DNA from: Nannocystis bainbridge | GTDB lineage: Bacteria > Myxococcota_A > Polyangia > Nannocystales > Nannocystaceae | Length of the DNA: 64,000 bases | Direction: 5' to 3' | Assembly: GCF_028368995.1 (NCBI RefSeq) | Contig: NZ_JAQNDL010000003.1 | Coordinates: 992,001-1,056,000, forward strand | Shown: piece by piece, positions 3,625 through 63,506 of the stretch | How positions within the stretch are numbered: position 1 is the stretch's first letter | How the letters are laid out: the number at the start of each line of letters is the position of its first letter | Translations under genes and position numbers: made by a program | The notes under the pieces: generated by a model | The model's input: the letters and a program-made list of their open reading frames with translations, nothing else | What the model was told of the DNA's origin: nothing | Databases searched by the model: none

Positions 3625-3747
3625 GGCTGTCCTCCCGGGCATGTCCCTCGGAACATGCCCTCATGAACCTGTGCGATCGGGCATGCTCCGAACGCCGGGC
3701 CATCGAACACCCGCCGAGCCGCTCGCCAGCCCCGCGCTCACCCGCAA

Positions 3748-4040
3748 GCGCCTGTCCCAAAGGACACCTCGCTCGTCTAACGACGACCGAGCGCCTCCGC
3801 ACCCGGGCCGCCGCGTCCTCGTCAGCGACATGTCCCCAAGGACACTTCACTCGCTGAACGACGACCGAGCGACTCTGCACCCTGGCGGCCGCGTCCTCGT
3901 CCGCGACATGTCCCCAAGGACACTTCGCTCGTTGAACGACGACCCGAGCATCCCGTCGCGAAAACGACGACCGAGCGCCTCCGCACCCTGGCCGCCGCTG
4001 CCCTCGCCAGCGACATGTCCCGAAGGACACATCGCTCGTC
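3748..4040. repeat. ~78-bp tandem repeat array (about 4 units), each carrying TGTCC-N4-GGACA
   Basis: Units start near 3748, 3825, 3903 and 4010 (GCGACATGTCCCCAAGGACACTTCGCTCG...ACGACGACCGAGCG). The array lies between convergent genes. Confidence 0.9.
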
Positions 4041-4050
4041 ACTCTGCTTT

Positions 4051-5301
4051 TTAGAAGCGTCCGGTGAGCGTCAGACCGAGCGCCCCGCGCCCTGGCCCGC
4101 CGCCGATCCGCAGCGCCTTCGCGTACTGCGACGAGCGCCCGCGCGACAGCCCGAGCCCCAGCCCTGCGCCGGCGACCAGCCCCGCGCCGAGCCCTGCGAC
4201 CGCCGAGGTCGCGGTGAAGATCGTCGCCGGACCCTTCACCCCGGTCTGCAGCTCGGCCCAAGTCGCCGGCGTCGTCGCGTTGACCTCGTTGAAGCTGTTC
4301 GCGCTGATCACCAGCCCGACGATCCCGCCGATCACCGCCGCCGCGCCGACGCCCGTCTCGACGTACCAGGCGATCTTCCGCGTCCGCTCCGAGCGCGCGT
4401 ACCAGACCGCCCCGCTACCGATCAGGCCCACGCCCGCGCCCAGCACCCCTGCTCCGGCCCCGCGCAGCGTCGCACCCGCGCGCAGCTCCGCCGAGCAGGT
4501 CTGCAGGTCGGGCCACGTCGCGCACTGGCTCGCGTCCGTCTTCAGCGCCGGCCCGAACTCCTTGCCTTGCGCCACCCCGGTGATGACCGCGCCCACGATC
4601 GCCAGCCCGCCGCCGACCGCGATCGTCGCCAGACCGACCTTGCGGCCGTCGAACGGCTTGTCGGGCTGCGGCGTCGGCTGTCCTTCGGGACCTGTCTCCG
4701 GGGGCAGGGGCTTCAGCGCCAGCTCGGCCGTCAGCGGCGCCCCGGCCGTCACCTTGATCTGCGTCTCCGCGGGCTCGGCCCCGGGCGCCTCTGCCCGCAG
4801 CACCCACGTCCCCGGGTCGAGCTGGATCACCCCGCTCTGCGCCGCCCCGCTGGGCGACACCGGCACCGGCAGGTTCGGCCGCAGATCCGACGCCAGCTCG
4901 CTGACCCACCGCGCCGTCACCTTCGGCGCCTCGGCCGCTCCATCGGCTTGCACGCGGACCTGCACGCTCGACACCTCGCGTCGCGCGACCTCGAGCTGCG
5001 CCTTGGCCTCGTCGCGGTCCGCCCCCTTCACCTCGGCCAGCGCCAGGTACTCGTTGAGGTACGCCACCGCGTGCGCGTAGTGGCGGGCCGTGTAGCGGGT
5101 CACCGCCGCGTTGAAGAGGAACCGCGGCTCCTTGAAGTCGCGCCACAGCGCCTCGAACTCGAGCGCCGCCTCCACGTGCCGCTGCTTCTCGAACTGCTGG
5201 TACGCCGCGGCGACCCGCTGTTCCTTCGACGAAGCCGACGCCGTGGGCGCGTCTGCCGTCACCATCGCCATCGCCAGCGCGACACCTTGCACGATCAGCA
5301 T
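4051..5301 (-). CDS. Myxobacterial TPR/PEGA-like protein with C-terminal TM helices
   Basis: Signal-like MLIVQGVALAMA, TPR-like helices (FLFNAAVT...YLNEYL), PEGA-like beta domain (LDPGTWVLRAEAPG), hydrophobic helices, ends GLTLTGRF. Confidence 0.7.
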   Translation of the reverse strand: MLIVQGVALAMAMVTADAPTASASSKEQRVAAAYQQFEKQRHVEAALEFEALWRDFKEPRFLFNAAVTRYTARHYAHAVAYLNEYLALAEVKGADRDEAKAQLEVARREVSSVQVRVQADGAAEAPKVTARWVSELASDLRPNLPVPVSPSGAAQSGVIQLDPGTWVLRAEAPGAEPAETQIKVTAGAPLTAELALKPLPPETGPEGQPTPQPDKPFDGRKVGLATIAVGGGLAIVGAVITGVAQGKEFGPALKTDASQCATWPDLQTCSAELRAGATLRGAGAGVLGAGVGLIGSGAVWYARSERTRKIAWYVETGVGAAAVIGGIVGLVISANSFNEVNATTPATWAELQTGVKGPATIFTATSAVAGLGAGLVAGAGLGLGLSRGRSSQYAKALRIGGGPGRGALGLTLTGRF

Positions 5302-5543
5302 TCGCCCTCGTTCCCCGGCCGGGCCGCGAGTATAAGCCCCACCGGCCCGCGGGCCAAGTGACGCGCACCCCCTCCCGCGCGCCCGAACGCCCACCTGCCC
5401 TAACGGCCAGGCTCGCCCGCGCGCATCCGCGTCGCTGGCTCGCGGCCCCACGCGAGCCTCACGCCCCCACCGCCGCGGCTCGCAGGGTTACGAGCGCGAC
5501 ACACGAAGCCCACGCGCCCACCGCGTGATCTCGCTACCACCTC

Positions 5544-5703
5544 GTGCACGGATGGCCCCGCGCCCCGACCTCGGCCCGCTGCGACGCGTGCACGAACGGC
5601 TCCGCGCCCCGACCTCGGCCCGCTGCGACGCGTGCACGAACGGCTCCGCCCGACCTAGGCCCGCTGCACGCGTGCACGAACAGCTCCGCGCCCGACCTCG
5701 AGG
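5544..5703. repeat. ~44-bp tandem repeat (3-4 units)
   Basis: CCCGACCTCGGCCCGCTGCGACGCGTGCACGAACGGCTCCGCG repeated in the intergenic region between divergent genes. Confidence 0.85.
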
Positions 5704-10376: not shown

Positions 10377-10698
10377 AGCACACCTGCTTCCGCGGGCGCG
10401 TTCGCGCGGAGGCTATGCAGCCTCGCGCACGCATGTGCGGCGCGAGGCGGAGCGGCGTTCGCCGCGAAAACGCTATCTTGGACGATGGTCAGTTGCACGA
10501 GCGAGCGGGCCCGTCGAGGCCCAGATCACACTCTGGCCCGAGCCTCTCGACCTCGCGGCGGCGTGCCGTGGCGAGCGCGCGTCGGCGGGGGAGCCGGCCC
10601 GTGTCGAGGGCCATGTCCACGAGAACACGAGCGGCTGTTCGCCGAGCATGGCCGGTGTTAGCTTCGGCGCTCCCCCCGAGCCATGAAGCGGCGATCTC

Positions 10699-11215: not shown

Positions 11216-13828
11216 CTACCCCCGCGGTTCGCTTCGCTCGCTCGCCGTCGGCGTCGGCAGCTCGCTCGCCGGCACCTTCTCGCCCGCGACGATCTGCGCG
11301 AAGATCTCCGCCTGCACCCGATGCAGCTCCCACGAGCGCTCGAGCACCCACAGCAGCTCGAGCAGCTCCTGCGTCATCGCCTCCGACCAAACGATGGGCC
11401 GCACGGCGTCGAGCGGTGACGACGTGCGGCCGCGCGGCTCCAGCATGCGCCCCGCCAGCCACGACGACACCACCTTCAATCCCGACACCTCGTAGCCCCA
11501 GATCTCCGCGGCCACCGGCGCGAATCGACCGCTGCCGACGCTCAGCACCCCGGCCGTCCACGAGCTCTTCGCCGGCACCTCGCGCACCGGCGCCACGCAC
11601 CGCGCTGCCCCTGCCGTGGGCACTGCGCGAAACGTGTGGAGCCCCAGCAGCTCCGCCCCGACCGCCGCGCAGCGGGAGAACAGCCGCTCGTCCCGCGTGA
11701 GCGGCACCCGCGGCCCCGGCTCCGCCACCTCCTCCGCCAGCGCATCCACATACCCGGGGTGCCCCAGGCAGCCGTAGACGTACGCGAACAGCTCCTCCGC
11801 CGCCACTGTCCGCGAGAACATGTCCCCAAGAACATCCAGCAAACCACGCGTCACGTTGGCCTGCCGCGCCATCGCATCGCGCCACAGCGGGATCACCCCC
11901 TTGTCGCCGAACGACCCGCGGAAGTGATGAAGGTCCGGCACCTCCGCGCAGCCCATCACCGCCGGCCCGCGCGACAACCCGCTCGACAGCAGCGTCGTCA
12001 GGTACAGCTGAGACGGCCCGTGCGCGCGCCACAGCGCCGGCCGCAGGCGATCGCCGAGGCGCGCGTCGGCGAGGCACCAGCGGCGATCGAGCGAGCGCCA
12101 GGAGATCCGCGCGACCCGTGGCATCGGCGCGTCGACCGGCAGCGACGCCAGCGGCGGCAACGGCGAGCCATCCAGGAGGTCGGCCCCCGGCCGCGCGATC
12201 GTCCACGCCTCCGACTCGCGGAACGCCGCCGCGCGATCCTCCGCCCGCAGCAACCCCCGCCAGCGCCGCTCCAGCACCTCCGGCGTCACCGCGATCGGCC
12301 ACGTCCGCTTCCACTGCGCCCCCGCGTGCTGCCACGGGAACAGATCGATCAATCGCGGCCAATCACCATGGTCCCCGGAGGCCCCCGGCACCAGCGGCGC
12401 CTCCCATGCATCGGCGGCGCGCGCCCATTCGAGTGAGTGCCACGATTGCAGCGCCCCGAGCGCGAGCAACTTCTCTTCACGCTGCTGCGAATCGGCGAGC
12501 CGCGCATACCACAGCACCGCCGCCCGTGATCGCTGAATCTCCGCCCTCCGCAACCCCACCGCGATACAGACCGGCGTGCGCACCCCTTTAAAAACATTCG
12601 CGGAGCGACGCGGGCCGAGAGCGTCGCCGCCGAGGTCGAGGATCCACAGCGCGTCGAGCACCTCGCGCAGATGGCGGCGCATCGCCGCGAAGCCTGGCCC
12701 GCGCAGGTAGCTCGACGGTGTGATCAGACAGACGATCCCCGGCCCATCCTGCTCGCAGCTCCACCAAAGCGCCCAGCGCCAGAAATAGACATACGCATTA
12801 TACAGATTCTTCGCGTGTCTGCCGAGAGCCCCCTCCGGCAAGAAATCACCGAGCAGCGCCCGCTCGCCGCGCCCGGGATCGCCGTGGCGGATCCACCCGC
12901 CGCGATCGTCCTCCGTCAATTCGCGCCGGTCGTACGGCGGATTGCCGATGCACACCCGGATCTGCCCCGCGTCCGTCGCCTCGAGCTGCGGGCGCGCCAG
13001 CGTGTCGCGCAACATCACCCGCGAAGCCTGCACGCGCCCGCCCGCGTCACGCAGCGCCCGCGTCACGCGAGCATGCGCCGCCGCGTGCGGCCCCGCGAGC
13101 ACCTCGTGGGCCACGAGGCTCTCGCCGAGGCGGGTCATGCACGCTTCGACATCGCCGCCGCCAGCTCGCGCTGTTCGCAGCGCGTCGTCGACGATCGCCA
13201 GCGGATACACCCCGGTGCCGCACGCCGGATCGATCACTGTCACGTTCGGCGCCGCGAACCCGAGCGGCGCCGCCAGCTCGCGCTGCAGCAGCTCGCGCAC
13301 TGCCACGATCTGTGCGTGCACCACCTCCGCCGGCGTGTAGTAGGCCCCCGCCTCGCGCCGCAGCCGCGCGTCGTACGCCGCCAGGAACTCCTCGTAAAAG
13401 TAAGTCCCCTCGCCCTCGCGCAGCCCCGCCAGCGACGCATCCTCGATCGCCGCCACCGTCGCCTCGAGCTCGTCCAGCGCTGCGCCGATCTCCCCGCGAT
13501 GCTCCGCCGCCGCTCGCATCGCCCGCAGCAGCGGACCCGGCGTCTCCCCCAGGCGCGTGCACGCCCCCGCCACCTCCGCCCGCGCCTCCGGGTGCGCGAG
13601 CCGATCGCTCCACAGCCCGTACGTGATCGTCTGCGCCAGCGCCTCGGCGAACTCCGCTTCGCCCCCGCGGGTCGCTGGCGACCACGCGTCCGCGAGCGTG
13701 CGCAGGCGCGAGCCGGGCGCTGTCACGGCCGCGAGCAGCGCGTCGCGCAGGGTTCGGCAGCTCGCGGCCAGTCGCGCCGCTACCTCGCGCGAGCTCTTCG
13801 GGGCCTGCCTCCGCACGCGCGGAAACAT
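11216..13828 (-). CDS. Type ISP/IIG-like N6-adenine DNA methyltransferase with C-terminal specificity domain, apparently lacking the nuclease
   Basis: YFYEEFLAAYD...GAYYTP, DPACGTG (motif I), IGNPPY (motif IV), LlaBIII-like C-terminal region (IWGYEVSGLKVVSSWL). The part of the listed 2026-aa ORF upstream of 13828 is an antisense shadow. Confidence 0.85.
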   Translation of the reverse strand: MFPRVRRQAPKSSREVAARLAASCRTLRDALLAAVTAPGSRLRTLADAWSPATRGGEAEFAEALAQTITYGLWSDRLAHPEARAEVAGACTRLGETPGPLLRAMRAAAEHRGEIGAALDELEATVAAIEDASLAGLREGEGTYFYEEFLAAYDARLRREAGAYYTPAEVVHAQIVAVRELLQRELAAPLGFAAPNVTVIDPACGTGVYPLAIVDDALRTARAGGGDVEACMTRLGESLVAHEVLAGPHAAAHARVTRALRDAGGRVQASRVMLRDTLARPQLEATDAGQIRVCIGNPPYDRRELTEDDRGGWIRHGDPGRGERALLGDFLPEGALGRHAKNLYNAYVYFWRWALWWSCEQDGPGIVCLITPSSYLRGPGFAAMRRHLREVLDALWILDLGGDALGPRRSANVFKGVRTPVCIAVGLRRAEIQRSRAAVLWYARLADSQQREEKLLALGALQSWHSLEWARAADAWEAPLVPGASGDHGDWPRLIDLFPWQHAGAQWKRTWPIAVTPEVLERRWRGLLRAEDRAAAFRESEAWTIARPGADLLDGSPLPPLASLPVDAPMPRVARISWRSLDRRWCLADARLGDRLRPALWRAHGPSQLYLTTLLSSGLSRGPAVMGCAEVPDLHHFRGSFGDKGVIPLWRDAMARQANVTRGLLDVLGDMFSRTVAAEELFAYVYGCLGHPGYVDALAEEVAEPGPRVPLTRDERLFSRCAAVGAELLGLHTFRAVPTAGAARCVAPVREVPAKSSWTAGVLSVGSGRFAPVAAEIWGYEVSGLKVVSSWLAGRMLEPRGRTSSPLDAVRPIVWSEAMTQELLELLWVLERSWELHRVQAEIFAQIVAGEKVPASELPTPTASERSEPRG

Positions 13829-13939
13829 AGCAGAGCAACATCGCGCGCGGTCGTCGGCCCGCGCGGACGGCGGCGCGGCGAGTGCGTGCATTTGTCCCCG
13901 CGGGAGCGCCGGCCCGCGGTGATATCCTCCTGGCGGCTC

Positions 13940-16900
13940 ATGCTTCATATCGCCGTCGAACGCGAGGGACAGCCGCGCAAAGAGCTCCGCTTCGCCAAGG
14001 ACGTGGTCGTCGTCGGCCGCGAGGCCGAGCACGATCTCCAGCTCAACTTCGAGGACGGCGCCTCGCGCCAGCACGCCCGCTTGAGCCACGAGCGCGGCCA
14101 GCACTTCGTCGAGGACCTCGGCTCGCGCAACGGCACCAAGGTCAACGGCAAGCGGATCGCCGCCAAGACCCCGCTCAAGCCCGGCGACGAGGTCGAGGTC
14201 GGCAAGGTCAAGATCTACCTGGTCGGAGAGACAGGTGCAGCCGGTGGCCGCGGCACCGCGCGGGTCCAGCCGCGCGGCGCCGACGACGACCAGACCGTCC
14301 AGCGCCCGGCCAAGGCCAAGGCGGCCGCGCCCGAACCTGCCCCGAAGGCCAGGCCCGCTCCCGAGCCCGCCAAGCCCGTCGCCAAGCCCGTCGCCAAGGC
14401 CTCGCGGCCGGCGCCCGATCCCGAGGCTGTCGCGCAGGACACCAGCATCCGCGTCAACCTGCGCCAGCCCGAGCCCGAGCCCGCGGCCGCGCCCGAGCCC
14501 GAGGGCAAGCCCACCGGCCCGGTCAACGACGAGAACGAGGCGTGCCGCAGCCAGATCGATCCGCTGGCCCGGCGCTGGCGCGACCTCGGCAAGCCCGAGG
14601 GGCTGCTCCTCCACGGCCCGCTGCTCAAGCGCGGCCTCACCTGGGCGGCCAGCGACCGCAAGCTGCGGCCGCGCCCGTCCGAGCTGCACCGCGAGTTCAT
14701 CTACGCCAGCCGCGGCGATCGTCGCCACCGGATCCGCGACGTCGGCCTGCGCGCCGGGGCGCTGACGATCGCGCTGGTCGGCGGCAACGTGGCGGCCCAC
14801 GTGCTCCACGACGACCTCGAGCTCAAGGACGCCGCCGCCGGTCGCGAGGCTGGTGCGGGCCAGTGCACGCCCGACAACCCGGCCGTGCAGCGGGCCAACC
14901 TCCTGGCCCAAAAGGCAGCCGAGCAGACCGACCTCGAGCTGGCGATCCTCGCCGGCACGCGGGCCGTCAGCGCCGCCGACGGCCCGTGCGCGCGTCAGTC
15001 CGACGCCGAGCGGGCGCTGCGGATCGCCCTCTCGCGCCAGCGCAGCCGCGTCATCGGTCGCGGCAACGCGCCGATCCGCGACGCAAACGTCGGCCGCGAC
15101 GAGCGTGACGTCGTCACCGTCGACGACACCGGCGCCGTCGTCCTTTACGACCGCACCGGCGCCTCGCAGCCGAAGACCTTGCCCTCGAGCAGCGGCGCCG
15201 GCAAGGTCGCCGCGCTCGGCCCCGAGGGTCGCTGGCTGGCCGTCGGGACAGCCAAGGGCGTCGTCGACCTGTGGGACCTCGCGCAGCGCACCGCGCCCAA
15301 GCTGACCCGGCAGCTCGAGAGTCACCGCGACCCTGTCACTGCGATCGCCTTCAGCGAGGACGGCCGGTTCTTCGCCACCGGTGACCGCCGCGGCAACGTC
15401 ACCGTGTGGGACATGCGAGGCACCGACGCCGGCGCCAAGCTCGGCGAGCTGCGGCAGCACAGCGGCGCCATCGAGCAGCTGGTGTTCCGCGACGGCGGCA
15501 GCCGCCTCTACTCGTTCGGCGGCAAGCAGGCGGTCGCCACCGACCTGCAGGACGGGCGCAAGAAGGGCAAGCAGCTCAACCTCGCCATCGGCGGCGACGC
15601 CACCGCGTTCGCGGTCAACGGCGAGGGCGACGAGGTCGTGGTCGGCGACAGCATCGGCCAGGTCGTGCGCTGGCGGGTCCGCACCCTCGCGCGCGCCCAG
15701 CAGGACGCGCTCGCCAGCCACACCGGCGCCGTCGTCGACCTCTCGTTCCTCCCCGGCGCGCGGGCCGTCCTGTCCCTCGGGACAGACAAGCAGCTCATCG
15801 TCACCGAGCTCGATCAGATGATGCGCGAGGGCAGCGAGCCGCTGCGCGTCGGCCTGCGCGGGCTGCAGTCCGAGCCCAAGGCCCTGGCCGCCGACCCGAC
15901 CGGGCGCCGGATCGCCGTCGCCGCTCAGGACCACAAGATCTACGTGTGGGATGCCGCCCAGCGTCACACCTCGGCCCAGCCGGTGGTCGTGTTCGACGAG
16001 CACGTCGACACCATCGAGTCGGTGCTGCCGAGCTACGACGGCAACTCGCTGCTGTCCGCCTCGGCCGACGGCACCTTGCGTCTGTGGCCGCTGCAGAACG
16101 CCGAGGCTGGCGGCGCGCTCGCGGTCCTCAGCGATCACCGCGGCCCGATCACCGGTTTGGGCCTCAGCAGCGACGGCGGCCGCATGGCCTCGCTCGGCCA
16201 GGACAAGGCCTTCCGCGCCTGGCGGCTCGACGCTCGTGGCGCCCCGCGGCGGATCCTCGAACGCACCTTCGAGCAGGCCCCGCAGGCTCTGGCCGTCAGC
16301 CCTGATGGTTTGTGGGCGGCCGTCGGCGTCGAGCGTCAGCTGCTCATCTACAACCTCGGCGCCAACGAGCGCGAGCCCAAGCCGATCGAGCGCGCCCAGC
16401 ACGACGACCTCATCAGCCACGTCGCCTTCAGCCCGGACAACCGCTGGCTGGTCAGCGCCGACTTCTCCGGCGCCATCAACACCTGGCCGATGAAGAGCGA
16501 CGGCCCCGAGGACAGCCCGGCCCGCAAGGTCGCGCTCGGCCGCTCCGTCACCGCGCTGGCGCTGGCGCCCAGCAGCCCCTACTTCGCGGTCGCCGCGGCC
16601 GACAACCGGGTCACGCTGTGGCCGATGACCGGCAACGGCGGCGAGCAGCAGGTCGTGCAGCACGAGAAGTCGGTGCTGTCGCTGACCTTCAGCGGCGGCG
16701 GCGACCTGCTGGTCTCGACCAGCGACGACGCGCGCGCGATCCTCCGCACCGTCGACAAGGGCAAGACCGCCGAGCTGTCCGAGCGCTCGGCCGTCGCCCA
16801 CGACTCGCGCGTGCGCGCGGCGGCGTTCAGCCCCGACAAGCGGTGGCTCGCCACCGGCAGCGACGACGGCGTCATCAACATGACCGACCTCAAGAACATG

Positions 16901-17278: not shown

Positions 17279-17307
17279 GCCCGGGCGGCGCTCCACGCGA
17301 CACGCTA

Positions 17308-17390
17308 TGTCCTCGATGACATGTCCCTATCGACATGTCGTCGAAGACATTTGCTAACAGACATGTCTTCGAGGGCATGTCCGAAAGACA
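17308..17390. repeat. Head-to-tail array of six 14-bp TGTC-N6-GACA-type palindromes
   Basis: TGTCCTCGATGACA|TGTCCCTATCGACA|TGTCGTCGAAGACA|TTTGCTAACAGACA|TGTCTTCGAGGGCA|TGTCCGAAAGACA (last unit 13 bp). Confidence 0.85.
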
Positions 17391-17447: not shown

Positions 17448-19169
17448 TCACTTCGCGTTGCTGCACGCCGTGTCGTTCGGGTCGCACTTGAAGCGGACGT
17501 GGATGTGGTGAATATGCCCGTCCGAGTGCATCACCAGCGCCGGCGCGCCCTTCGGCCGCGGCCACTGGATCAGCTTCTTCAGCTCGGCCGCGCTCTCGCC
17601 CTCGGCGATCGCCGCCTTGTGCAGCTCTTCTTGCAGCCAGTGCGACAGGAAGATCTCCTGGATCGCCCCGGTCGAGTTCAGCGCGCGGATGAACCGCCAC
17701 GTCGTCCGCCAGTCGACCTCTTCGGGCTCCGGGCGGCAGCTCGTCGTGCTGCAGTTCTTGCAACCGTCGAGGTAGCGCTTGCGTTTGACCTGCAGCCAGA
17801 TGTCGGCGTCGCGGCCGGACTGGTGCGACTTGTGACGGCCGTAGCCGCCGCCGTCCTTGAGCGACAGGTCGGCGATCATCACCTGGTTGCTGAAGCCCTG
17901 GGCGCGGAACTCGGAGACCCCGCGCAGCAGCTGCGACAGCGTGTGGTTGGTCGCGTAGGCGTGCGAGGCGCAGCGGACATCGGCCAGCGGCGAAGGCAGC
18001 AGCTGCACCGGATTGACGAGCGTCCCGCTGGTCACGCCGCCGACCGAGCTCGCGCCCGTGGGGACGATGAAGATCGGCAGGTCGTCGGGGTTCGGCGACT
18101 TCGCCCCGAACGCACCGGCGTCGATCCACAGCGTCAGCTCCTCGCCGCCCTTGAGCCGGTCGGGCACCTTCGGGTTGAACTGGCGCAGCTTGTCGACGCT
18201 CGTGCTGTACAGGTTGGCGACCGCCAGCCAGTCCTCGCCCTCGCCGACCGTGTAGTACTCCTGGACCAGCGGCGGCCGCGGCGGACGCGTCGTCCGCACC
18301 TTGAGCTTCATGTCCGTCAGCAGCGTCGTCACCCCGCCGTTCCACTGCTGCAGCAGCACCGGCGACACCTCGTAGTAGCGGGCGATGTCCTCGAGCGTCT
18401 CGCTCGGGCTGACCTGGTGCTCGATCCACTCCTCGCGCGCCGTCGGCCCCGAAGGACCTGTCCTTTCGGCCACCTGATCGTCGATGCTCGTCGGCGTCGG
18501 CGTCGGCTCCGGCTCGGGCTCGGTCGCCGCGGGTCGGTTGAACAGGAAGATCGCCAGCGCCCCGAGCAGCACGCCGCCGGTCGTGAACTGCAGCGCCCGG
18601 CGGATCATGTGCGCCCGCATGCTCGCGCCGACGAACTCGCGCAGCAGCGGCTCGGCCTCGACCTCGGCCCGCTGCGCCGGCACGGCCATCCAGCCCTCGG
18701 CCAGCCCCAGGTCGCGGCCGTGCAACAGCAACCGGCGCGCCCGCCCGTGGTCGACCCACTCGCGGGCGTAGCGAGCCAGCCGCCGCTGCTCGACGGCCCG
18801 CTGCTCGTCCTCGCCGCGGGCCAGCGCGACCGGCTCGAACTTCAGCTTCTGCTCGAGCTTGCGGTCGCGGTCGTCGTCGGCGATCTCGAGCACGTAGGCG
18901 CCGATGCTGAGGCGATCGCCGGCGCGGAACTCGGTCGGCTCGCTGCAGCGGCGCGAGTTGACGTAGGTGCCGTTGCGCGAGCCACGGTCGGTGACGATGA
19001 GCTTGTCACCCTTGAAGGAGATCCGGCAGTGCTTGCTGGACACGCCGTGGCCGCCGAGGACCAGGGTGGAGTCGACGCTGCTGCCGACCTGCATCTCCGG
19101 GCCCTTGAACGCGACCCGGCGCTCGTCGCCGTCCGGGGATATGACCTTGAAGACAGGTCCGTCAGCCAC
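17448..19169 (-). CDS. FHA-TM-2xLysM-MepA-type murein endopeptidase
   Basis: FHA (VSSKHC...SRNGTYVN), TM, LysM (HQVSPSETLEDIARYY; YTVGEGEDW), MepA-like Zn motifs HKSHQSGRDADIW and HIHHIHVRF. Confidence 0.85.
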   Translation of the reverse strand: MADGPVFKVISPDGDERRVAFKGPEMQVGSSVDSTLVLGGHGVSSKHCRISFKGDKLIVTDRGSRNGTYVNSRRCSEPTEFRAGDRLSIGAYVLEIADDDRDRKLEQKLKFEPVALARGEDEQRAVEQRRLARYAREWVDHGRARRLLLHGRDLGLAEGWMAVPAQRAEVEAEPLLREFVGASMRAHMIRRALQFTTGGVLLGALAIFLFNRPAATEPEPEPTPTPTSIDDQVAERTGPSGPTAREEWIEHQVSPSETLEDIARYYEVSPVLLQQWNGGVTTLLTDMKLKVRTTRPPRPPLVQEYYTVGEGEDWLAVANLYSTSVDKLRQFNPKVPDRLKGGEELTLWIDAGAFGAKSPNPDDLPIFIVPTGASSVGGVTSGTLVNPVQLLPSPLADVRCASHAYATNHTLSQLLRGVSEFRAQGFSNQVMIADLSLKDGGGYGRHKSHQSGRDADIWLQVKRKRYLDGCKNCSTTSCRPEPEEVDWRTTWRFIRALNSTGAIQEIFLSHWLQEELHKAAIAEGESAAELKKLIQWPRPKGAPALVMHSDGHIHHIHVRFKCDPNDTACSNAK

Positions 19170-19179
19170 GGTGTCCTCC

Positions 19180-20856: not shown

Positions 20857-20860
20857 CTGG

Positions 20861-38697: not shown

Positions 38698-38826
38698 CCG
38701 CGCGGCCACGAACCTGCTCTGCGTCTGGCGGCAGGAGCATGTCCCTGAGGACATGTCTCAAGTATCAGGCCGATGCGCAGGCGCTGTCTCGACGCCGTGG
38801 GCTTGCTCGCCCGTCGGGCGGCCGGG

Positions 38827-42326: not shown

Positions 42327-42372
42327 CGCGCGCCTTCGCTGGGGCCTGTCTCTGGGGACAGGCGGTCGCGGC

Positions 42373-43743
42373 TCAGCCGTCGCCGAGGCGCTGGCGGACG
42401 TCCTGGGCGTAACGGCTGCGGGGGAAGCGGCGCAAGAACTCGGCGCCGGCCTGGGCGGCCTGGGTGGCGCGACCGAGGCGGTGCAGCGCCTCGACGCGGC
42501 CGTGCAGGGCCTCCTCCGCGAGGGCGCCCTGCGGGGCGTCGCGCAGGTAGGCGTCGAACGCCGACAGCGCGCCGCGTGGATCGCCGAGCGGGCCGAGCGA
42601 CAGCTGGCCGAGCGTGACCTGGGCGGTGCGGGCCAGCGAGGTGTCGCCGTGCTCACGCAGCAGACGGCGGTAGATGCGGGCGGCCGCGCGGTAGTTGCCG
42701 GCGCCGCGCAGCGCGTGGGCCTCGTCGATGAGCTGCCCGGGGTCGCTGGCCGGGCGCGCTTTGGCCGGAGCGCTGCGCTCGGCGGCGGCGGGGACCGCCC
42801 GGGCCAGCGAGTCGGCCGTCTCGCCCTCGGCGAGCAGGCGTTCGCCGTCGGGGCCGTGCAGGCGATGGGTGCCGTGGACCGCGGTGATCCGCCAGCGCTC
42901 GGGCTCCGCGATCACTCGCAGGGCGCCCGGCCCGTCGCTGACGATCGCCACGCCGGCGACCTCGATCCACACCACGCCGACGGCCGCCGGCGTGACCTCG
43001 ACGTGCAGGTCGCCGCGCTCGACCGCGAGGACGGCCCCGCGCACCCGCAGCTCGGCCTCGCCCGCGGCGCAGGCGGTGAACAGGTCAGTTGCGCCGACGC
43101 AGGCGGCGTCGTCGAGGCGCAGCGGGCCGTCGGCGAGCGGCTGGTGGAGGGCGAGCGGAGCCTGGCCGTCGCTGCCGCCGCCGCCGCCGCGGAGCAGGCG
43201 CAGCTCGGCGGGCATGTCCTTCGAGACAGGCGCTTCGGCTCGACCGGGGCTGTCCTTCGGGGCATGGGCGACGAGGTCGAGCGCGGTTCTGTCCTTTGGG
43301 ACAGGTGGTTCGAGGTCGAGCTTCGCGCCGGGCGCGACCTGGGCGGCGCGCGATGACATGTCCTCGGGGACATGTCCGAAAGGACGGATGATCAGCAGCC
43401 ACGCGGCGGCCGCGGCGAAGGCGACGCCGAGGCCGATGCCGAGGGCCGAGCGCCGGCCGGGGCCCGACGCGGCCGGGTGGCCGGCGAGGAAGCGGTCGAC
43501 CGCGCCGGCGACGATGGCGTCGTCGGCGGCGGTGACTTCGGGCTCGCCGCGGCGGAGCTCGTCGAGCAGCTCGCGCTCGCGTCGGGTCGCCGCCCCGTCG
43601 CCGCGGTGGGCCGCGAGGAAGGCGGCGTCGTCGGCCGCGAGCGGGTCGCCGGCGAGGGACGCGTCGACGAGTCGGCGCCAGCGTCGGTCCGCGGAGGTGT
43701 CGTCGATTGCTTCGGGTTCGTGGTGCATGGGAGGCTCCGTCAC
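42373..43743 (-). CDS. Anti-sigma factor-like protein (TM, FecR-like beta domain, TPR)
   Basis: Overlaps the ECF gene stop; AAAAAWLL TM helix; C-terminal TPR (FDAYLRDAPQGALAEEAL...FPRSRYA). Confidence 0.75.
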   Translation of the reverse strand: MTEPPMHHEPEAIDDTSADRRWRRLVDASLAGDPLAADDAAFLAAHRGDGAATRRERELLDELRRGEPEVTAADDAIVAGAVDRFLAGHPAASGPGRRSALGIGLGVAFAAAAAWLLIIRPFGHVPEDMSSRAAQVAPGAKLDLEPPVPKDRTALDLVAHAPKDSPGRAEAPVSKDMPAELRLLRGGGGGSDGQAPLALHQPLADGPLRLDDAACVGATDLFTACAAGEAELRVRGAVLAVERGDLHVEVTPAAVGVVWIEVAGVAIVSDGPGALRVIAEPERWRITAVHGTHRLHGPDGERLLAEGETADSLARAVPAAAERSAPAKARPASDPGQLIDEAHALRGAGNYRAAARIYRRLLREHGDTSLARTAQVTLGQLSLGPLGDPRGALSAFDAYLRDAPQGALAEEALHGRVEALHRLGRATQAAQAGAEFLRRFPRSRYAQDVRQRLGDG

Positions 43744-46242: not shown

Positions 46243-47970
46243 TCACTCCGCGCGGCGGACGAAGTGCTCGCTCGCGGCCAGCTGCACGTAGAACTCGCGC
46301 AGGCCGAGCTCGCCCTCCTGCAGGGCGGTGCGGGCCTCCTCGGCGAGGCAGTTCTCCTCGACGCCGTAGGCGAAGTTGGCGAGCAGGCCGCTGACGCAGT
46401 CGGTGGTCTGCGGCAGCTCGGCCAGCTTGCTCGCCATGTCGGTGAGGCCGTCGAAGGTGACGAGCGGCACCAGCTTCGAGTCGACCGCCTGGCCGGTGGC
46501 GTCGATCGTCAGCCCGTTCTCGTCGGCGCGGTAGCGGCCCGCTTGATCGAAGTGCTCGAAGCCGAAGCCGATCGGGTCGAAGTACTGATGACACGACTGG
46601 CAGGCGGGATCGCCGGCGTGGGCGACCTCGTAGCGCTCGCGGGTGGTCTGCGCGCCGGGCATCGGCGGATCGATGGCCGGGATGTTCATCGGCGGCGGGA
46701 TGTGCGGGCCGCACAGCAGGCGGTCGTAGACCAGCAGGCCGCGCTTGGTCGGCGACGAGCTGTCGGCGTGGGCCTGGCCCGCGAGCACCGAGCCCTGGGC
46801 CAACAGGCCGATGCCCCAGTCGTCCGGCCGCTCGACGACGACGCTCTCGCCGGCGATCTGGCCGAAGCCGTAGAACTGCGACAGCGTCGCGTCGAGCACC
46901 GTGAACGACGCCGTCAGCAGGGCCCGCACGTCGCCGTCCTGGGCGAACACCACCTCGTCGACGAAGCGCCGCGTCTCGTCGATCATGCGCATGCGGATGC
47001 CGTCGAACCCGGCGATGTCGATCTTCACCTTGCTCTCGACCTGCGGGTACTTGGCCCACTGGCGGAAGAACAGGTGCAGCACGCCCTTGCCGCGCGCGGT
47101 CGCCAGCAGCGCCTCGGCCTCGGCCATGCGCGCCTCCGGGGTCGCCAGCGCGCCCTGCTCGGCCTTCGCCAGCAGCTCCGGGCTCGGGGTGCTGCCGCCG
47201 TAGGTGTACGCGAGCGCGGTCGCGACCTCGTAGGGCGTCAGCGCGTGACCGCCGTCGACCGGCTCGCCGAGCTCGCTGCGGTACACGGCGTGCGGTGACT
47301 GGATCAGGCCGACGAGGGTCCACTTCAGCGCGATCGGGAACGCGACCTCGGCGGCGATGCCGGCGAAATGCGCCTCGTAGCGCCCGCGCTCGTCGCCGCT
47401 GAGCGGGCGGCGGAACAGCCGCTCGCCGTACTTGCCGATGAACTCGGCGGCGCAGGCCGAGTCGGGCTTCTGGGCCGCGCACGGCAAGATCGTCGACAGC
47501 ACCGCGGGCGCGGTGACGGCGTCGCCGACGGCCTCGGCGGTGGCGAGCCACTCCTTCGCGGTCTGGTCGCCGACCAGCAGCGTCGCGGCGTCGTTGGTGA
47601 ACCCGTGCTTCGACGCCGGATCGATGCCCAGCGCCACCCCGGACCACGTCGCCTCGATCTCGGGGAAGATGTCGCGCAGCGTGCTCTCGAGCTCGACCTG
47701 CGACAGGCGCCGCAGCACCCGCGCGCCCAGGCGCGACTGCTCGCAGCGGCCGGACGGGTTGATCGGCGGCGGATCGTCGCCGGTGTCGCTGGTGCCGGCG
47801 GTCGGATCGTCGCCGGTGGTCGGCACGCCCGCGGTGCCGCCGGTCTCGGTGTCGCTGCCGCCGGGGTCGGAGTCGGTGCCGGCGCCGCCGCCGCTGCTCG
47901 GACAACCTGTCCCGAAGGCCAGGCCGAGCGCGAGGTACAGATGTCGGGAGGAGAGGTCGATGCGTGTCAT
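46243..47970 (-). CDS. DUF1592/1588/1595/1587 (PSCyt-associated) lipoprotein
   Basis: LRRLSQVE, LFRRPL, SPHAVYRSE, SSPTKRG, CQSCH heme-like motif, DPIGFGFEHFD. Confidence 0.88.
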   Translation of the reverse strand: MTRIDLSSRHLYLALGLAFGTGCPSSGGGAGTDSDPGGSDTETGGTAGVPTTGDDPTAGTSDTGDDPPPINPSGRCEQSRLGARVLRRLSQVELESTLRDIFPEIEATWSGVALGIDPASKHGFTNDAATLLVGDQTAKEWLATAEAVGDAVTAPAVLSTILPCAAQKPDSACAAEFIGKYGERLFRRPLSGDERGRYEAHFAGIAAEVAFPIALKWTLVGLIQSPHAVYRSELGEPVDGGHALTPYEVATALAYTYGGSTPSPELLAKAEQGALATPEARMAEAEALLATARGKGVLHLFFRQWAKYPQVESKVKIDIAGFDGIRMRMIDETRRFVDEVVFAQDGDVRALLTASFTVLDATLSQFYGFGQIAGESVVVERPDDWGIGLLAQGSVLAGQAHADSSSPTKRGLLVYDRLLCGPHIPPPMNIPAIDPPMPGAQTTRERYEVAHAGDPACQSCHQYFDPIGFGFEHFDQAGRYRADENGLTIDATGQAVDSKLVPLVTFDGLTDMASKLAELPQTTDCVSGLLANFAYGVEENCLAEEARTALQEGELGLREFYVQLAASEHFVRRAE

Positions 47971-57201: not shown

Positions 57202-57578
57202 CCTCGCACCTCACCACCCGCGCCGAGCACAAGCGACAGTACCGCGAGCAGCCGCGGCAGGCCGGCATCTACCTCATTCGCAACACCGTCAGCGATCGCG
57301 TGCTGCTCGGCAGCAGCATGAATTTGCACGGCCCGCTCAACCGCCACCGCTTCCTGCTCTCGATCGGCGGCCACCCCAACCGCGCCCTGCAGGACGACTG
57401 GCGCCGCCTCGGCCCGGACGCCTTCGAGTTCACGATCGCCGAGGTCGTCGCGCCGCAGGACGCAGAGGCCGGCCCGCACGAGGACGAGCTCGCGTTCCTG
57501 GAGGACCTGTGGCTCGAGCGCACGGCGCCGCTCGGCGAACGCAGCTACAACCTGCACCCGCGGATCCGCGACACCTGA
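57198..57578 (+). CDS. Small GIY-YIG nuclease-family protein
   Basis: AGIYLIRN...VLLGSS, HPNRALQDDW...FEF. ATGA overlap with DUF2239. Confidence 0.85.
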   Translation: MTSHLTTRAEHKRQYREQPRQAGIYLIRNTVSDRVLLGSSMNLHGPLNRHRFLLSIGGHPNRALQDDWRRLGPDAFEFTIAEVVAPQDAEAGPHEDELAFLEDLWLERTAPLGERSYNLHPRIRDT

Positions 57579-57677
57579 GCGGGTCATCGACATGTCCAAA
57601 AGGACATGGTTGATGATTGACCCGATGCGCCGCGAACGCCGCGAGCGGCTCGCCGCGCGCCGGCTCGGGGCCCAGGT

Positions 57678-60307: not shown

Positions 60308-61312
60308 TCAAGGACGCGGCGCCTCGCCCTCGAGCCGGGCGACGTACGTGCGACGGACCAGGACGAGCCCAAGGGCCGTCAGGGGCACCGCCACGACGAC
60401 CCCCAGCGCGCCGGCCAGCACACCCATCGCCGTCTGCGCGAGGATGGTCAGCGCCGGCGGCAACGACACCGCTCTTCGCTGGATCAGCGGCGTGACCACC
60501 GTGTTCTCGACGACCTGCACCCCGACGTAGAGGACGGCCACCCAGATGGCCGTCTGCGTCCCTTGCAGCAGGGCCAGCAGCAGCGCGGGCACTGCCGAGA
60601 GGATCGGACCGAAGTTCGGCACGAACACCATCACCCCGGCCACGAGCCCGAGGACCAGCGCGAGCGGCACTCCGAGGGCCCACAGCCCCACTGCCGTCGC
60701 CACGGCGACCAGCGTCATCGACACGAGCGAGCCCACGAGCCAGCGGCGCAGCACCTGGCCGCATTCGGCGACGAGCGCCCTCACCCGTGGCCGGGCATCC
60801 ACGGGGAACAGCCGGATCGCGTTGTCGATGTACACCCGCGGCTGCAAGGCCGCCCACAGGCCGACGACCGCGATCACGAACAGGCTGACGACCGCGCCGA
60901 ACGTCGTCGACAGCGCTCGACCGGCGCCCTGCATCGCCTCCGGCTGGGCGCCCTGCACCCGGGCGATCAGCCAGCGACCCCAGCGGTGTTGTTCGAGCAT
61001 CGCCGACAGCTCGCGCCATGCGTCGGGGATCTGCGCCATCATCTCGTCGAATTGCCGGCCGAACTCGGGCGCGATCGCAAACGCCGCGCCCGCCGCGGCG
61101 AGCACCAGCACCACCAATACGAGGGCGATCGACTGATTGGGCGACAGACGGGTGCGCGCGCTCAGCCAGTCCGCGGGGGCGCGCAACAGGACTGCAATCA
61201 GCACACCGGCGAACATCAGCAGCAATACGTCGACCAGCCACCACGCCAGCAGGACCCCCGCCGCCACCATGCCCGCGCGCACGAGGGCCGACGTCAAAGA
61301 TTGCGGCGACAT
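60308..61312 (-). CDS. AI-2E family transporter
   Basis: LRRWLVGSL, FVPNFGPILSAVP, QVVENTVVTPLIQ, SLPPAL. Confidence 0.9.
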   Translation of the reverse strand: MSPQSLTSALVRAGMVAAGVLLAWWLVDVLLLMFAGVLIAVLLRAPADWLSARTRLSPNQSIALVLVVLVLAAAGAAFAIAPEFGRQFDEMMAQIPDAWRELSAMLEQHRWGRWLIARVQGAQPEAMQGAGRALSTTFGAVVSLFVIAVVGLWAALQPRVYIDNAIRLFPVDARPRVRALVAECGQVLRRWLVGSLVSMTLVAVATAVGLWALGVPLALVLGLVAGVMVFVPNFGPILSAVPALLLALLQGTQTAIWVAVLYVGVQVVENTVVTPLIQRRAVSLPPALTILAQTAMGVLAGALGVVVAVPLTALGLVLVRRTYVARLEGEAPRP

Positions 61313-61751
61313 CAAGCGCCGTGCCCCTCTCGCTCGCGCTCGATCGAAGGCCCCGGGAGGGCCGCCGCGGTCCGTGAACGTCGCTTCGTTGTCCGCACCG
61401 GGGGATCCAAGCACAACAATTGCCGCGGTCGAATGCGCGGCTCCGCCAGGCTCGACCGTAGCCGACGAGGGCGAGCGCGCAGCCTTCGACGAGGTGCCGA
61501 GCCTGCTGGGATGCGTCAATTCAGGCATCCGCTTTTCGCCTGCGCCCCCGCGTCCTCGCGCAGCATGCGCGGCGGCGAGGTGTTCGTCGCGCGACGAACA
61601 CCTCGCTCAGGGAGCCCCGCTCTGGAATTCCCGAGATCGCGAACCTCGAGTCCGCGCGCGACTTCATGTCGATTCCACCCATTCGCCCCGCTGTCCCGTT
61701 CGCGAGGCCACCACACCCCGAAGGACCTCGTTCTCGCCGACGTGAAGCCCC

Positions 61752-63506
61752 GCTAGCCCGGATTTCTCACCACGGGTAGCGGAGCTTGCTGAGCGGCCTC
61801 TATCCGACCAGGCGCTCGGCGCTCGGTCGTCGGTGATAGGAGTCGCGGGCGACGCCGAAGCTTGCGCGAGATCGAGCTGTAGGGTGGATTACAAGCCCGG
61901 CGGGGCCCTTCCGAGCTACATGTCCATGAGGACATACGAATCCCGGCGCGGAGAGGCGCACCCATGCGGGCAGGAGGTTGTCGAGGATCGTCAGCGTCTC
62001 ATGAGCGTGATCGGCGGAGGTTGTCGAGGGCACGCCACCAGACGTGCTGGAAGGGGAAGACCGAGCTGAGGGAGATGTAGATGCGGCGGACCGAGGTCGT
62101 GATGATCGCGCCGATCTTGAGCAGCCGCGTGCGGATCGTGGAGACCTGGGCGTGCGCGAGTTCGGTACCGACGAGCGCGATTCGGCGGAGCTCGTTCAGG
62201 ATCATGTAGGCGACGGACGAGAGCCAGAGGCGGAGCTGGTTGGCGCGCAGCGTGTGCGCGCTCGTGCGGTCGGCGAAGAGGCCGAGCTGCTGCTCCTTGA
62301 TCCGGTTCTCCATGTCGCCGCGGGCGCAGTACAGGTCCTCGTAGAGGCCGCGGGCGTCATACTCGTCGCAGGACAGGTTGGTGGCGACGAAGCGCGGGTT
62401 CTCCTTGTCGGTCGTGTACTCGGCCTTGCCGACCACGCGGCGTTCGCAGGACCAGGACCGGTTCGTCTCGTATCGGAAATCCTTGAAGACCCGCGCGTTC
62501 TTGCCGGTGCGCTCGGCGATGGCGCGGGCCTCGCTCATCTCGGCGTCGATCTCCTCGATCAAGCGCGAGTTCTTCTGCAGGCCGAGGACGAAGTAGAGCC
62601 CGTTGTCCTCGCACCAGCGCATGAGGTCATCGCGGCAGAAGCCCGAGTCCCCACGCACGATGATCCGCACGCTCGGCCAGCGCGCGAGGATCTGCGCGAC
62701 GATCCGCTCCAGCTCCTCGACCGCATGGCTGGCCGGCTGCTCGTTGGCGGTGTTCAGCGCGGCACCGAGGAGGAAGTTGCCACAGAAGACGTACAGCGGC
62801 AGGTAGCAGTAGCCGTCATAGAAACCGTGAAAGAAGCGGTCCTCCTGCTGACCGTGCACCGGGTCGTCGGTCGCGTCGAGATCGAGGACGATCTCCGCCG
62901 GCGGTTCAGTGTGCGCGGCGAGGAAGGTGTCGACGAAGAGGCGTTGGATGCCGTGGTCGTCGTAGCTGATCTTCTTGTAGCGCTCGTCACCCGCGACGAT
63001 CGGCGTCGCCAGCTCCAGGCGGTTCAGCGTGCTCTTGCCGGCCAGCGCGTGGCCCCGGTCGCGCTCCCGCTTGCGCTGCTCGCCGGTCGGATCGGCCTTG
63101 CCGACCGCCAGTGCGAGCAAGGCGTCGTCGCGGAGCGTGTCATGGTCATTCAGGTCTTCGTAGCCGCACAGAAGGCCCAGCACACGCTGCGCCAGCAGCT
63201 CCTCGACGGTGTGCTCGATGCGGCTCGGGTCGCGGTGGTCCCGGAAGCAGGACGCGAACCTTCGAAACACACCTGAGCTCTTGGTCAGCTCGCGCAGCAG
63301 CAGCAAACCGCCGTCCGAGCTGACCCGTCCGGCGTCGAACGCAGCCTCGACCCGGCGCCGTCCGGCAGGTTGAAAATCGAACTCGGTGCGGATACACCTT
63401 GTCGTGTTCCGGCCGTACCCCTGGGTGGCAAGCAATCGTTTCACACCCGCTCAAACTCGGGAAGTACGGCCGGAATTCCTTACCGTGGTGAGAAATCCGG
63501 GCTAGG
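61752..63506 (-). mobile_element. Complete IS1380-family insertion sequence
   Basis: 23-bp perfect TIR CTAGCCCGGATTTCTCACCACGG (61753-61775 / 63483-63505); 5-bp target duplication GCCCC at 61747-61751 and 63507-63511. Confidence 0.95.
61999..63444 (-). CDS. IS1380-family DDE transposase
   Basis: FDAGRVSSDGG, GYEDLNDH, LDLDATDDPVHGQQE, RGDSGF, YCARGDMENRIKEQQ. Start codon uncertain. Confidence 0.95.
   Translation of the reverse strand: MKRLLATQGYGRNTTRCIRTEFDFQPAGRRRVEAAFDAGRVSSDGGLLLLRELTKSSGVFRRFASCFRDHRDPSRIEHTVEELLAQRVLGLLCGYEDLNDHDTLRDDALLALAVGKADPTGEQRKRERDRGHALAGKSTLNRLELATPIVAGDERYKKISYDDHGIQRLFVDTFLAAHTEPPAEIVLDLDATDDPVHGQQEDRFFHGFYDGYCYLPLYVFCGNFLLGAALNTANEQPASHAVEELERIVAQILARWPSVRIIVRGDSGFCRDDLMRWCEDNGLYFVLGLQKNSRLIEEIDAEMSEARAIAERTGKNARVFKDFRYETNRSWSCERRVVGKAEYTTDKENPRFVATNLSCDEYDARGLYEDLYCARGDMENRIKEQQLGLFADRTSAHTLRANQLRLWLSSVAYMILNELRRIALVGTELAHAQVSTIRTRLLKIGAIITTSVRRIYISLSSVFPFQHVWWRALDNLRRSRS

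Follow-up and report, generated by a model that had tools for sequence, protein, structure and literature searches.

Iterated palindromes such as the repetitive extragenic palindrome (REP), HIP1 (highly iterated palindrome 1) and the DNA uptake sequence (DUS) count as some of the most poorly understood features of bacterial chromosomes. Here we describe a 14-bp word of this kind, TGTCC-N4-GGACA, in Nannocystis bainbridge, both in a stretch of 64,000 nucleotides (positions 992,001-1,056,000 of contig NZ_JAQNDL010000003.1, hereafter the window) and across the genome of 11.05 Mb (5 contigs, 71-72% GC). The Nannocystis case is unusually clean: the dyad is strict, the 14-bp phase exact and the anchor at stop codons sharp, while the boundary of the lineage is clear and sister genera show a graded abundance.

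The REPs and bacterial interspersed mosaic elements (BIMEs) of enterobacteria and pseudomonads are species-specific palindromes that occur in clusters and are enriched past the 3' ends of genes. DUS of Neisseria and the uptake signal sequences (USS) of the Pasteurellaceae come in dialects, are dense, occupy tolerant sites within genes and form inverted repeats past gene ends. The met-boxes of MetJ, the heptads of the omega protein and the iterons of plasmid centromeres are arrays on which proteins bind cooperatively, with a handful per replicon at promoters or centromeres, while the Rickettsia palindromic elements (RPEs) are selfish in-frame insertions of 100-150 bp in genes. HIP1 (GCGATCGC) of the cyanobacteria is hyper-abundant in coding and non-coding DNA, exceeds a codon-aware expectation and is conserved between genomes, and is presented as having no clear function at the RNA or peptide level (PMC5861425). 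The Nannocystis palindrome differs from each of these in architecture or placement. Its exact 14-bp phased arrays and their steep concentration at stop codons were missed by an earlier note on the window, which had been made from the letters alone.

Genome-wide abundance

The window holds 11 perfect copies of TGTCC-N4-GGACA, whereas 100 dinucleotide-preserving shuffles averaged 0.04 and never had more than 2, and it has 28 sites with at most one mismatch where 1.73 are expected. The earlier note had put the chance expectation at well under one perfect copy per window. Across the genome there are 1987 perfect copies, compared with 12.8 expected from the frequencies of the arms. The enrichment is bound to a single spacing, since the same arms at N0-N3 and N5-N11 occur only 0-16 times each. 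One mismatch in one arm adds a further 4258 copies (about 218 at N3, N5 and N7), and the relaxed pattern TGNCY-N4-RGNCA is found 6858 times, as opposed to 540, 518 and 390 times at N3, N5 and N6, which amounts to about 0.6 per kb overall; these sites occur in coding as well as non-coding DNA. The half-site TGTCC by itself is hardly enriched (12351 copies versus about 10,600 computed by hand from base composition).

Genes were called with a simple codon-usage caller made for this analysis, which returned 8119 open reading frames (ORFs) covering 84.7% of the genome. By this measure 1160 perfect copies are intergenic (in 15.4% of the genome), a count somewhat inflated by genes that the caller missed; 810 (41%) lie in coding sequence (CDS) and 17 cross an edge. 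The 810 coding copies stand against 21-26 after a protein-preserving shuffle of synonymous codons and 4-5 after a shuffle of codon order (5 replicates each). Hence the enrichment persists against a codon-aware background; it acts at the level of DNA and has also shaped protein sequences. The flanks of 90% of these copies carry the signature of coding DNA in GC content at third codon positions, as do 98% of random coding positions.

The copies are not descendants of one repeat. In an all-against-all BLAST comparison of the ±80-bp flanks, 1556 of the 1987 copies resemble no other copy, so that a single long family of REPs or miniature inverted-repeat transposable elements (MITEs) does not explain the enrichment; the two big flank clusters, with 150 and 97 members, turned out to consist of the 14-bp unit itself in arrays. 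On all five contigs each full 250-kb bin holds 12-79 perfect copies, with a mean of 45 and a variance of 221, so that the distribution is clumped. No pattern linked to the origin or terminus was seen, and copy density is unchanged at switches of GC skew. The analogy to matS, parS and SlmA sites drawn in the earlier note is therefore rejected, because the sites number thousands, fill every bin and follow neither origin nor terminus. Its alternative, a HIP1-like palindrome maintained genome-wide, gains support from the presence of the word in coding and non-coding DNA alike.

The unit and its arrays

The extended consensus reads R-C-(A/C)-TGTCC-YYRR-GGACA-(T/G)-G-Y. Tolerance was judged by scoring the count of each variant against that of the same variant at other spacings, and it is uneven along the arm. 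Position 2 (G) is strict, variants at positions 1 and 4 reach 3-11x and 11-16x, position 5 can be C or T (149x), and the central position 3 can be any base provided that the change is on one arm alone (26-31x). The effective half-site is TGnCY, or (C)(A/C)TGnCY in its extended form. The 14-mer is the primary unit, because 1145 of the 1987 perfect units stand alone, without an abutting half-site, whereas 760 of the 956 GGACATGTCC decamers have a partner at N4. An asymmetric word of the DUS/USS type was rejected on the same count of solitary dyads and on the confinement of the enrichment to the N4 dyad.

Neighbouring units often abut without a linker, with the CATG at the join common to both. 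Distances from one CATG to another occur 3736 times at 14 bp, 2073 times at 28, 1586 times at 42 and 751 times at 56, while nearly all other distances occur about 70-480 times and the 70- and 84-bp multiples 383 and 391 times. When CATGs are chained at the 14-bp period, 2066 arrays are obtained: 1265 of 2 units, 328 of 3, 213 of 4, 159 of 5, 75 of 6 and 22 of 7, together with four that exceed 7 units, the longest having 12. Arrays of at least 4 units are overwhelmingly intergenic (437 of 473). Their edges fade out and defined ends are absent. Adjacent spacers differ in 1595 of 1670 pairs; they are identical in 75, compared with 19.5 expected, an excess that implies some recent duplication of units. 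The idea that the spacers are target-site duplications was rejected, neighbouring spacers being seldom identical.

Anchoring at stop codons

Convergent spacers carry 1.59 perfect copies per kb, tandem spacers 0.64-0.68 and divergent spacers 0.22. A perfect copy is present in 324 of 1444 convergent spacers, 71 divergent spacers hold at least 2 units, and in tandem spacers 73% of copies are closer to the upstream stop than to the downstream start. The transition at the stop codon is abrupt: relaxed units rise from 13-37 per 10 nt within the gene to 476-509 just past its end. A spike at -3 is formed by 123 genes in which the TGA stop doubles as the left arm TG[A]CC, and beyond the stop single-base spikes follow at +11, +25, +39 and +53 as one 14-nt series and at +2 and +16 as a second. 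The consensus past such stops is TGA-CC-N4-GGaCATGtCC-N4-GG.CATG... In total 1761 of 8118 genes have a unit that starts between -3 and +60 nt of the stop.

Normalised by position, the density in convergent spacers is highest next to the stop, with 11-12 units per kb over the first 20 nt; it drops steadily, reaching 2.8 by 100-150 nt and 0.34 by 300-500 nt, although figures for long spacers are unreliable where the caller missed genes. In tandem spacers the density is 5-6 per kb just after the stop and declines to 0.7. Beside start codons it is 0.2-0.7 per kb and within CDS 0.32, while the N5 control gives 0.0-0.3 per kb. These background and post-stop densities reveal two layers, an enrichment of the word throughout the genome and a steep component anchored at stop codons.

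Copies in coding sequence

Coding copies use the three frames unequally, the first T of the unit falling at codon position 3, 2 or 1 in 462, 283 and 65 cases, and in the commonest frame (position 3) the unit is read as xV[P/L]xD. They sit in poorly conserved stretches rich in Pro, Ser and Ala, residues that are over-represented beside them (1.44x, 1.25x and 1.24x), while aromatic residues and Ile, Asn and Lys are depleted. The densest clusters are found in disordered repeat regions of large proteins. Several dense clusters appear to lie just downstream of genes of about 200 amino acids that resemble extracytoplasmic function (ECF) sigma factors, judging by gene size and position (for example C3:712627-718442 and C2:2615363-2618889); the pairing was checked with Pfam for the window pair at 42373-44363 only. 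A unit-dense 'spacer' of 3.7 kb in C3:1093500-1099500 turned out to be a long repeat-rich ORF missed by the caller (1740-4900 of that stretch). It encodes Gly/Pro-rich repeats of the type ...APGTGPWGQ..., and its DNA is full of GGTCC-N4-GGACA-type units. Between orthologues, coding copies keep fixed positions and change by substitution, with no clean insertions seen.

Lineage distribution and turnover

The specificity to one lineage that the earlier note had proposed is borne out by all 11 genomes of the genus. The other 10 Nannocystis genomes contain 114-2090 perfect copies, against 1-6 for reversed-pattern controls, and 400 kb from each of two other Nannocystis species yields 44 and 60 copies at N4 and 0-1 at other spacings. 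The word is weakly represented in two sister genera, with 87 (G011) and 161 (G013) copies, and drops to background elsewhere, with 3-5 in six other genera of the family and 0-7 in 12 genomes that belong to the class but to different families. In G013 all 15 sites examined are isolated rather than arrayed and about half are coding, from which we conclude that the word predates Nannocystis, whereas its arrays and its expansion are confined to that genus. Three CATGs at the 14-bp period occur 1670 times in N. bainbridge compared with 0-4 times per genome in 150 genomes of the phylum. G011 (61.7% GC) over-represents a palindrome of its own, TTGCA-N2-TGCAA / TGCAT|ATGCA, with 7-10 copies per 200 kb (C6:1-200000) where 0.1-0.3 are expected; iterated palindromes may thus have another 'dialect' there.

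Two abutting perfect units were found in 49 stretches among 185,579 species genomes, 32 of them from Nannocystis, 14 from Mesorhizobium and 3 singletons. Mesorhizobium was rejected as a second carrier, since its double unit is part of an unrelated perfect palindrome of 48 bp, CACCCCCCTC-TGTCCTGCCGGACATGTCCGGCAGGACA-GAGGGGGGTG. Among the ten matches listed for it some flanks are shared and others differ, which indicates at least several distinct loci; the palindrome has the look of a REP-like Mesorhizobium element in which the double unit is coincidental. On viral contigs CATGTCC-N4-GGACATG is present in 102 stretches, and among the 80 listed each is one site on a separate contig; no virus with multiple copies was seen.

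Individual loci can be followed between species. Past the orthologous stops of gene 37552-38697, arrays that vary in unit number and spacer sequence are present at 5 of 8 loci, and the 3 without an array are the most divergent (72-76% identity). At the convergent spacer 3625-4050 an array follows the stop both in the window and in each of the five other species to which it was compared; in four of these the spacer also has tandem repeats of differing length and sequence, of which the unit is the only common part. Stretches of 400 kb from two further species (G010, 87% identity; G003, 85%) were aligned and pooled into a small sample of 79 site comparisons, which separates the arms from their surroundings. 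Between genes 216 of 260 arm positions are identical (83%), as opposed to 702 of 1040 in the far flanks (67.5%) and 57 of 104 in the spacers (55%). In CDS the corresponding values are 431 of 520 (83%), 1640 of 2080 (79%) and 157 of 208 (75%). The nominal p values for arms against flanks, 4e-7 between genes and 0.04 in CDS, are overstated because the two genomes are related. Where N. bainbridge has a post-stop unit, so do 14 of 32 and 21 of 31 orthologous gene ends; where it has none, a unit is present at only 4 of 119 and 3 of 100. The arrays are old and bound to their loci, where they are maintained; their turnover is moderate and recent gains are few.

A putative reader of the site

The anatomy, abundance, lineage restriction, DNA-level constraint and stop-codon anchoring observed above lead us to infer that a protein reads the site and acts there. 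Our preferred reading, held tentatively, is that the palindrome is a recognition site in double-stranded DNA for a putative dimeric protein that binds cooperatively in arrays, and that selection holds these arrays at gene ends. The dimeric DNA-binding protein suggested in the earlier note would fit the strict N4 spacing, the half-site TGnCY, the free spacers and the lack of base-pair compensation. A sequence-specific Nannocystis protein of this kind would read TGTCC-N4-GGACA on double-stranded DNA through the effective half-site (C)(A/C)TGnCY. Single sites would be scattered everywhere, the tolerant parts of genes included, and neighbouring dimers could bind cooperatively along abutting units of 14-bp period. 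Selection would have placed arrays at, or tens of bases past, the stops of about a fifth of genes, where they might act as orientation-independent punctuation, either as a protein roadblock or insulator against read-through or as a topological barrier, and fill the niche that REP/BIME occupies in enterobacteria. A more sweeping version, in which a dedicated cooperative protein on phased arrays at the stops of more than a fifth of all genes halts or insulates transcription in both directions, as a roadblock terminator or topological barrier, and the thousands of single sites are evolutionary spill-over, is possible but on balance doubtful.

Several observations weigh against recognition by a dimeric protein with a role at gene ends. 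No candidate for the reader was found, and binding remains predicted. A DNA-bound protein cannot sense a stop codon, so that the anchoring must be credited to selection, and a reading linked to RNA or translation would explain it more directly. The gene-end role leaves the 810 coding copies and their pile-up in disordered linkers unexplained, a pattern that looks more like a genome-wide drive. Whole perfect sites are only moderately retained between species (15 of 34 and 20 of 45, where control 14-mers give about 0.17-0.45 by site class). Finally, two sense biases point towards RNA: the 3/12 wobble variant is commoner in the sense orientation (110 versus 69), and in tandem spacers the loops GCAA and GTGA occur 9 and 6 times against once each for their complements.

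These biases, weak as they are, would be expected if the unit formed a hairpin in the 3' untranslated region of the RNA (or in single-stranded DNA), with a stem of 5-7 bp and a loop of 4 nt, read in a sequence-specific way by an RNA-binding protein or RNase; like REP stabilisers or the stem-loop of histone mRNA, it would mark out or shield the 3' ends of transcripts. Such a hairpin gives the best account of the anchoring, with its steep gradient from the stop and a density in convergent spacers about 2x that in tandem ones, and it agrees with a loop fixed at 4 nt and sense-biased loops of the GNRA type. Arrays do fold better than shuffled sequence (-0.459 versus -0.267 kcal/mol per nt in 120 arrays), as do the sites in the window (z-scores of -1.9 to -5.2), but the predicted fold of an array consists of 1-2 long hairpins rather than one per unit. 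A difficulty lies in the stem: any single-arm base at the central position would break the 5 bp, so that the tolerance seen there looks like a contact map and not a stem. TGCCC is partnered by GGGCA in 146 cases, by AGACA in 107 and by GGCCA in 106, TGTCT..AGACA occurs 127 times where independence predicts about 94, and the compensated double variants show no clear excess over uncompensated ones of like composition. In 593 stand-alone intergenic sites, complementarity past the consensus is no greater than under permutation, except in a small tail (about 36 sites versus 12). There is no U-tract signal, with T-runs within 25 nt on the sense side of 25 and the antisense side of 19 of 606 sites, and no overall sense-strand preference among G.U-compatible variants (318 versus 271 between genes, 298 versus 378 in CDS). 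The motif follows only 7 of 102 tRNA genes, which end in ordinary GC-stem/T-run terminators, no Rfam family matches the window, and coding copies on either strand are left unaccounted for. Overall, we regard a hairpin as improbable.

The coding copies are best explained by a molecular drive of the DUS/USS or HIP1 kind, in which machinery for uptake, recombination, biased repair or methylation favours DNA that bears the word, and copies accrue by point mutation wherever selection allows, in 3' spacers first and then in disordered linkers. The roughly 6900 relaxed sites in coding and non-coding DNA speak for it, as do the avoidance of promoter-proximal DNA, the absence of a transposase and of shared flanks, the substitution of coding copies at fixed positions rather than by insertion, their preferred frames in tolerant Pro/Ser/Ala-rich stretches, and the 161 isolated copies of G013, with about half of the 15 examined coding. 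It also has a precedent in HIP1, for which a link to transformation efficiency has recently been reported. We nevertheless consider a drive unlikely. Copies that merely filled free space would not be expected to fall about 30-fold in density with distance from the stop in convergent spacers, which are free of promoters, even if some long spacers may contain missed genes. The copies are clumped (per 250 kb, a variance of 221 for a mean of 45), and the uptake sequences known to date are asymmetric rather than strict dyads. The D12-class methyltransferase, the sole class profiled, is present in 25 of 31 relatives, hence not lineage-specific and uninformative either way. A further alternative is a non-autonomous mobile mini-palindrome of the REP/MITE type, spread by a hypothetical enzyme that targets gene ends or existing units, with arrays that grow by insertion or slippage. 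That orthologous arrays differ in unit number, that identical adjacent spacers exceed expectation, that one unit-bearing indel of 18 bp separates orthologous linker sequences, and that REPs share the niche at 3' ends would all be in keeping with mobility. However, neighbouring spacers mostly differ, recent gains are rare at orthologous gene ends, coding copies are substituted and not cleanly inserted, no Nannocystis genome of the 11 encodes a matching Y1/RAYT transposase, and defined termini, target duplications and shared flanks are lacking. A mobile origin is the account to which we give least credence.

Sites within the window

All 11 perfect copies listed in the earlier note were recovered at their positions. 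Its nine near-perfect copies are each a real one-mismatch site, to which eight can be added (3628, 10614, 11807, 14428, 15237, 17308, 17322 and 19771), and the abutting GACA|TGTC joins it described are present at 3628/3642, 11807/11821, 17308/17322 and 43359/43373.

Two abutting one-mismatch units (3628..3655) begin 3 nt past the stop of gene 2407-3624(+), and further along the same convergent spacer, 3625-4050, four perfect units (3753, 3831, 3909 and 4016; 3753..4029) each form the core of a 78-bp tandem repeat (period 78, 2.5 copies in Tandem Repeats Finder, TRF). About 29 nt past the stop of gene 13919-17278(+), also in a convergent spacer, lies a degenerate array of about 5 units with 14-bp period (17307..17382; TRF period 14, 5.4 copies). 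At 38695..38753 a relaxed unit, the TGA of which is the stop of gene 37552-38697(+), is followed in the convergent spacer by the perfect unit at 38740. The TGTCT variant at 42347..42360, a one-mismatch unit, lies 20 nt past the stop of gene 41529-42326(+), and the perfect unit at 57593..57606, which is contained in a 14-bp stem, 14 nt past that of gene 57198-57578(+); both spacers are convergent. A one-mismatch unit occupies a divergent spacer (10614..10627).

Copies within genes, as reported in the earlier note, are found at 15771, 28674 and 43215-43386. The perfect unit at 15771..15784 in the FHA-WD40 gene is translated L-S-L-G-T; among 5 orthologues, 3 have it intact and 2 have it altered by substitutions. 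The five-unit cluster at 43215..43386 (two perfect, three one-mismatch) encodes xVPxDx peptides in a linker of gene 42373-43743(-), directly downstream of the ECF sigma factor gene 43740-44363, and has units at matching positions in 3 orthologues, among indels. Within CDS 4051-5301(-), a one-mismatch unit and an abutting relaxed unit (4679..4706) keep the same position in 4 orthologues, with substitution differences only. Further one-mismatch units lie in CDS 17448-19169(-) (18459..18472) and CDS 46243-47970(-) (47908..47921). Two abutting one-mismatch units at 11807..11834 are part of a minus-strand ORF and encode a conserved VLxDMF peptide; around them orthologues use rare A/T-ending codons. 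The surrounding region, 11216-13900, is 84-89% conserved in five species and has ORFs on both strands, yet was left uncalled by the gene caller, and the start of the FHA-WD40 gene may be 12671 instead of 13919.

The earlier note also placed copies inside both insertion sequence (IS) elements of the window. This is true of the perfect unit at 28674..28687, which lies towards the 3' end of a fragment of an IS3-family integrase; the motif, either perfect or one mismatch away, is present in all 4 copies of this fragment in the genome. Downstream of the DDE transposase gene 61999-63306(-), 64 nt beyond its stop, is the perfect unit at 61921..61934, which could not be shown to be within the IS of that gene.

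Other repeats and genes of the window deserve brief mention. At 49465-49497, upstream of gene 47967-49436(-) and about 30 nt from its start, the 14-bp unit TCATGTCGTAAAGT forms a perfect tandem of 2.4 copies with identical units and three CATGs at 14-bp period, which may be a young or aberrant array with non-palindromic arms. A 44-bp tandem repeat at 5543-5700 (3.7 copies, 89% matches) occupies the divergent spacer upstream of a DUF4215 repeat-protein gene. At 17448-26496 is a type VI secretion cluster that includes VipA, VipB, Hcp and an AAA+ ATPase resembling ClpV; it adjoins an FHA/LysM/peptidase M74 protein, a Ser/Thr kinase and the large FHA-WD40 protein, neighbours that look like a module for control by threonine phosphorylation.

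Comparison with known systems

Full-text literature searches found no published description of the motif or of iterated palindromes in Nannocystis, as the earlier note had supposed. Iterated palindromes are a known kind of element; a 5-N4-5 dyad in 14-bp phased, stop-anchored arrays has not been met in print. Should a protein indeed read gene ends by way of these sites, they would constitute a new punctuation of transcription units for a very GC-rich bacterium; should they be a drive signal, they would be the first uptake- or HIP-like word in myxobacteria known to us. In practical terms the word marks the native DNA of Nannocystis, a genus rich in natural products, and bears on the annotation of gene ends and the design of expression constructs.

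Several established classes were tried and rejected. An intrinsic (Rho-independent) terminator is incompatible with a 5-bp core stem that lacks extension and with the rarity of T-runs. REP/BIME elements with a REP-associated tyrosine transposase (RAYT) are excluded by PF01797, the IS200/IS605-like Y1 transposase, which is found in 0 of 11 Nannocystis genomes but does have matches among relatives (8 of 31) and control genomes (6 of 14). A strictly extragenic REP conflicts with the 810 of 1987 perfect copies in called CDS, and a REP-type hairpin kept by compensatory change with compensation that is not clearly enriched and stems that stop at the consensus. A MITE or other IS-derived repeat would have defined ends, target duplications or shared flanks, none of which are present.

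The short symmetric units that abut without linkers, each possibly bound by one dimer, recall the operator arrays of ribbon-helix-helix and helix-turn-helix proteins (MetJ met-boxes, omega-protein heptads, plasmid centromere iterons). Unlike these, the Nannocystis arrays number about 2000, lie past stop codons and are depleted near starts. With RPEs the word shares the occurrence of palindromic repeats within intact protein genes; it differs in its 14-bp unit, its conserved positions and its change by substitution, clean insertions not having been seen. The resemblance to DUS and USS is closer, in a genus-level 'dialect', a density nearing 1 per kb, a preference for tolerant parts of genes and for certain frames, and intergenic copies that double as inverted repeats past genes. 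In contrast to them, the Nannocystis word is itself a strict dyad, its half-site is barely enriched and it is clumped in arrays.

HIP1 is matched in hyper-abundance in coding and non-coding DNA, in codon-aware over-representation, in conservation between genomes, with arms more conserved than their surroundings (79 comparisons, 2 related genomes), and in the lack of a clear RNA or peptide function. Unlike this contiguous 8-mer, the Nannocystis word is bipartite with a free spacer, forms phased arrays, is anchored at stops and belongs to a different phylum, and no cognate methyltransferase was identified for it within the D12 class that was checked. REP/BIME, including REP doublets (REPINs) with their RAYTs, is the other close relation: like the Nannocystis word, its palindromes are short, species-specific and repeated hundreds to thousands of times, cluster past gene 3' ends and in convergent spacers, and are kept at the same loci across relatives. 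The 14-bp core, the strict 5-N4-5 dyad, the 14-bp phase from the stop codon, the 41% of perfect copies in genes, the missing RAYT and the lack of any sign of selection at the level of a hairpin set the Nannocystis word apart. On our analysis the palindrome thus appears to be REP/BIME-like in its niche and HIP1-like in its spread.

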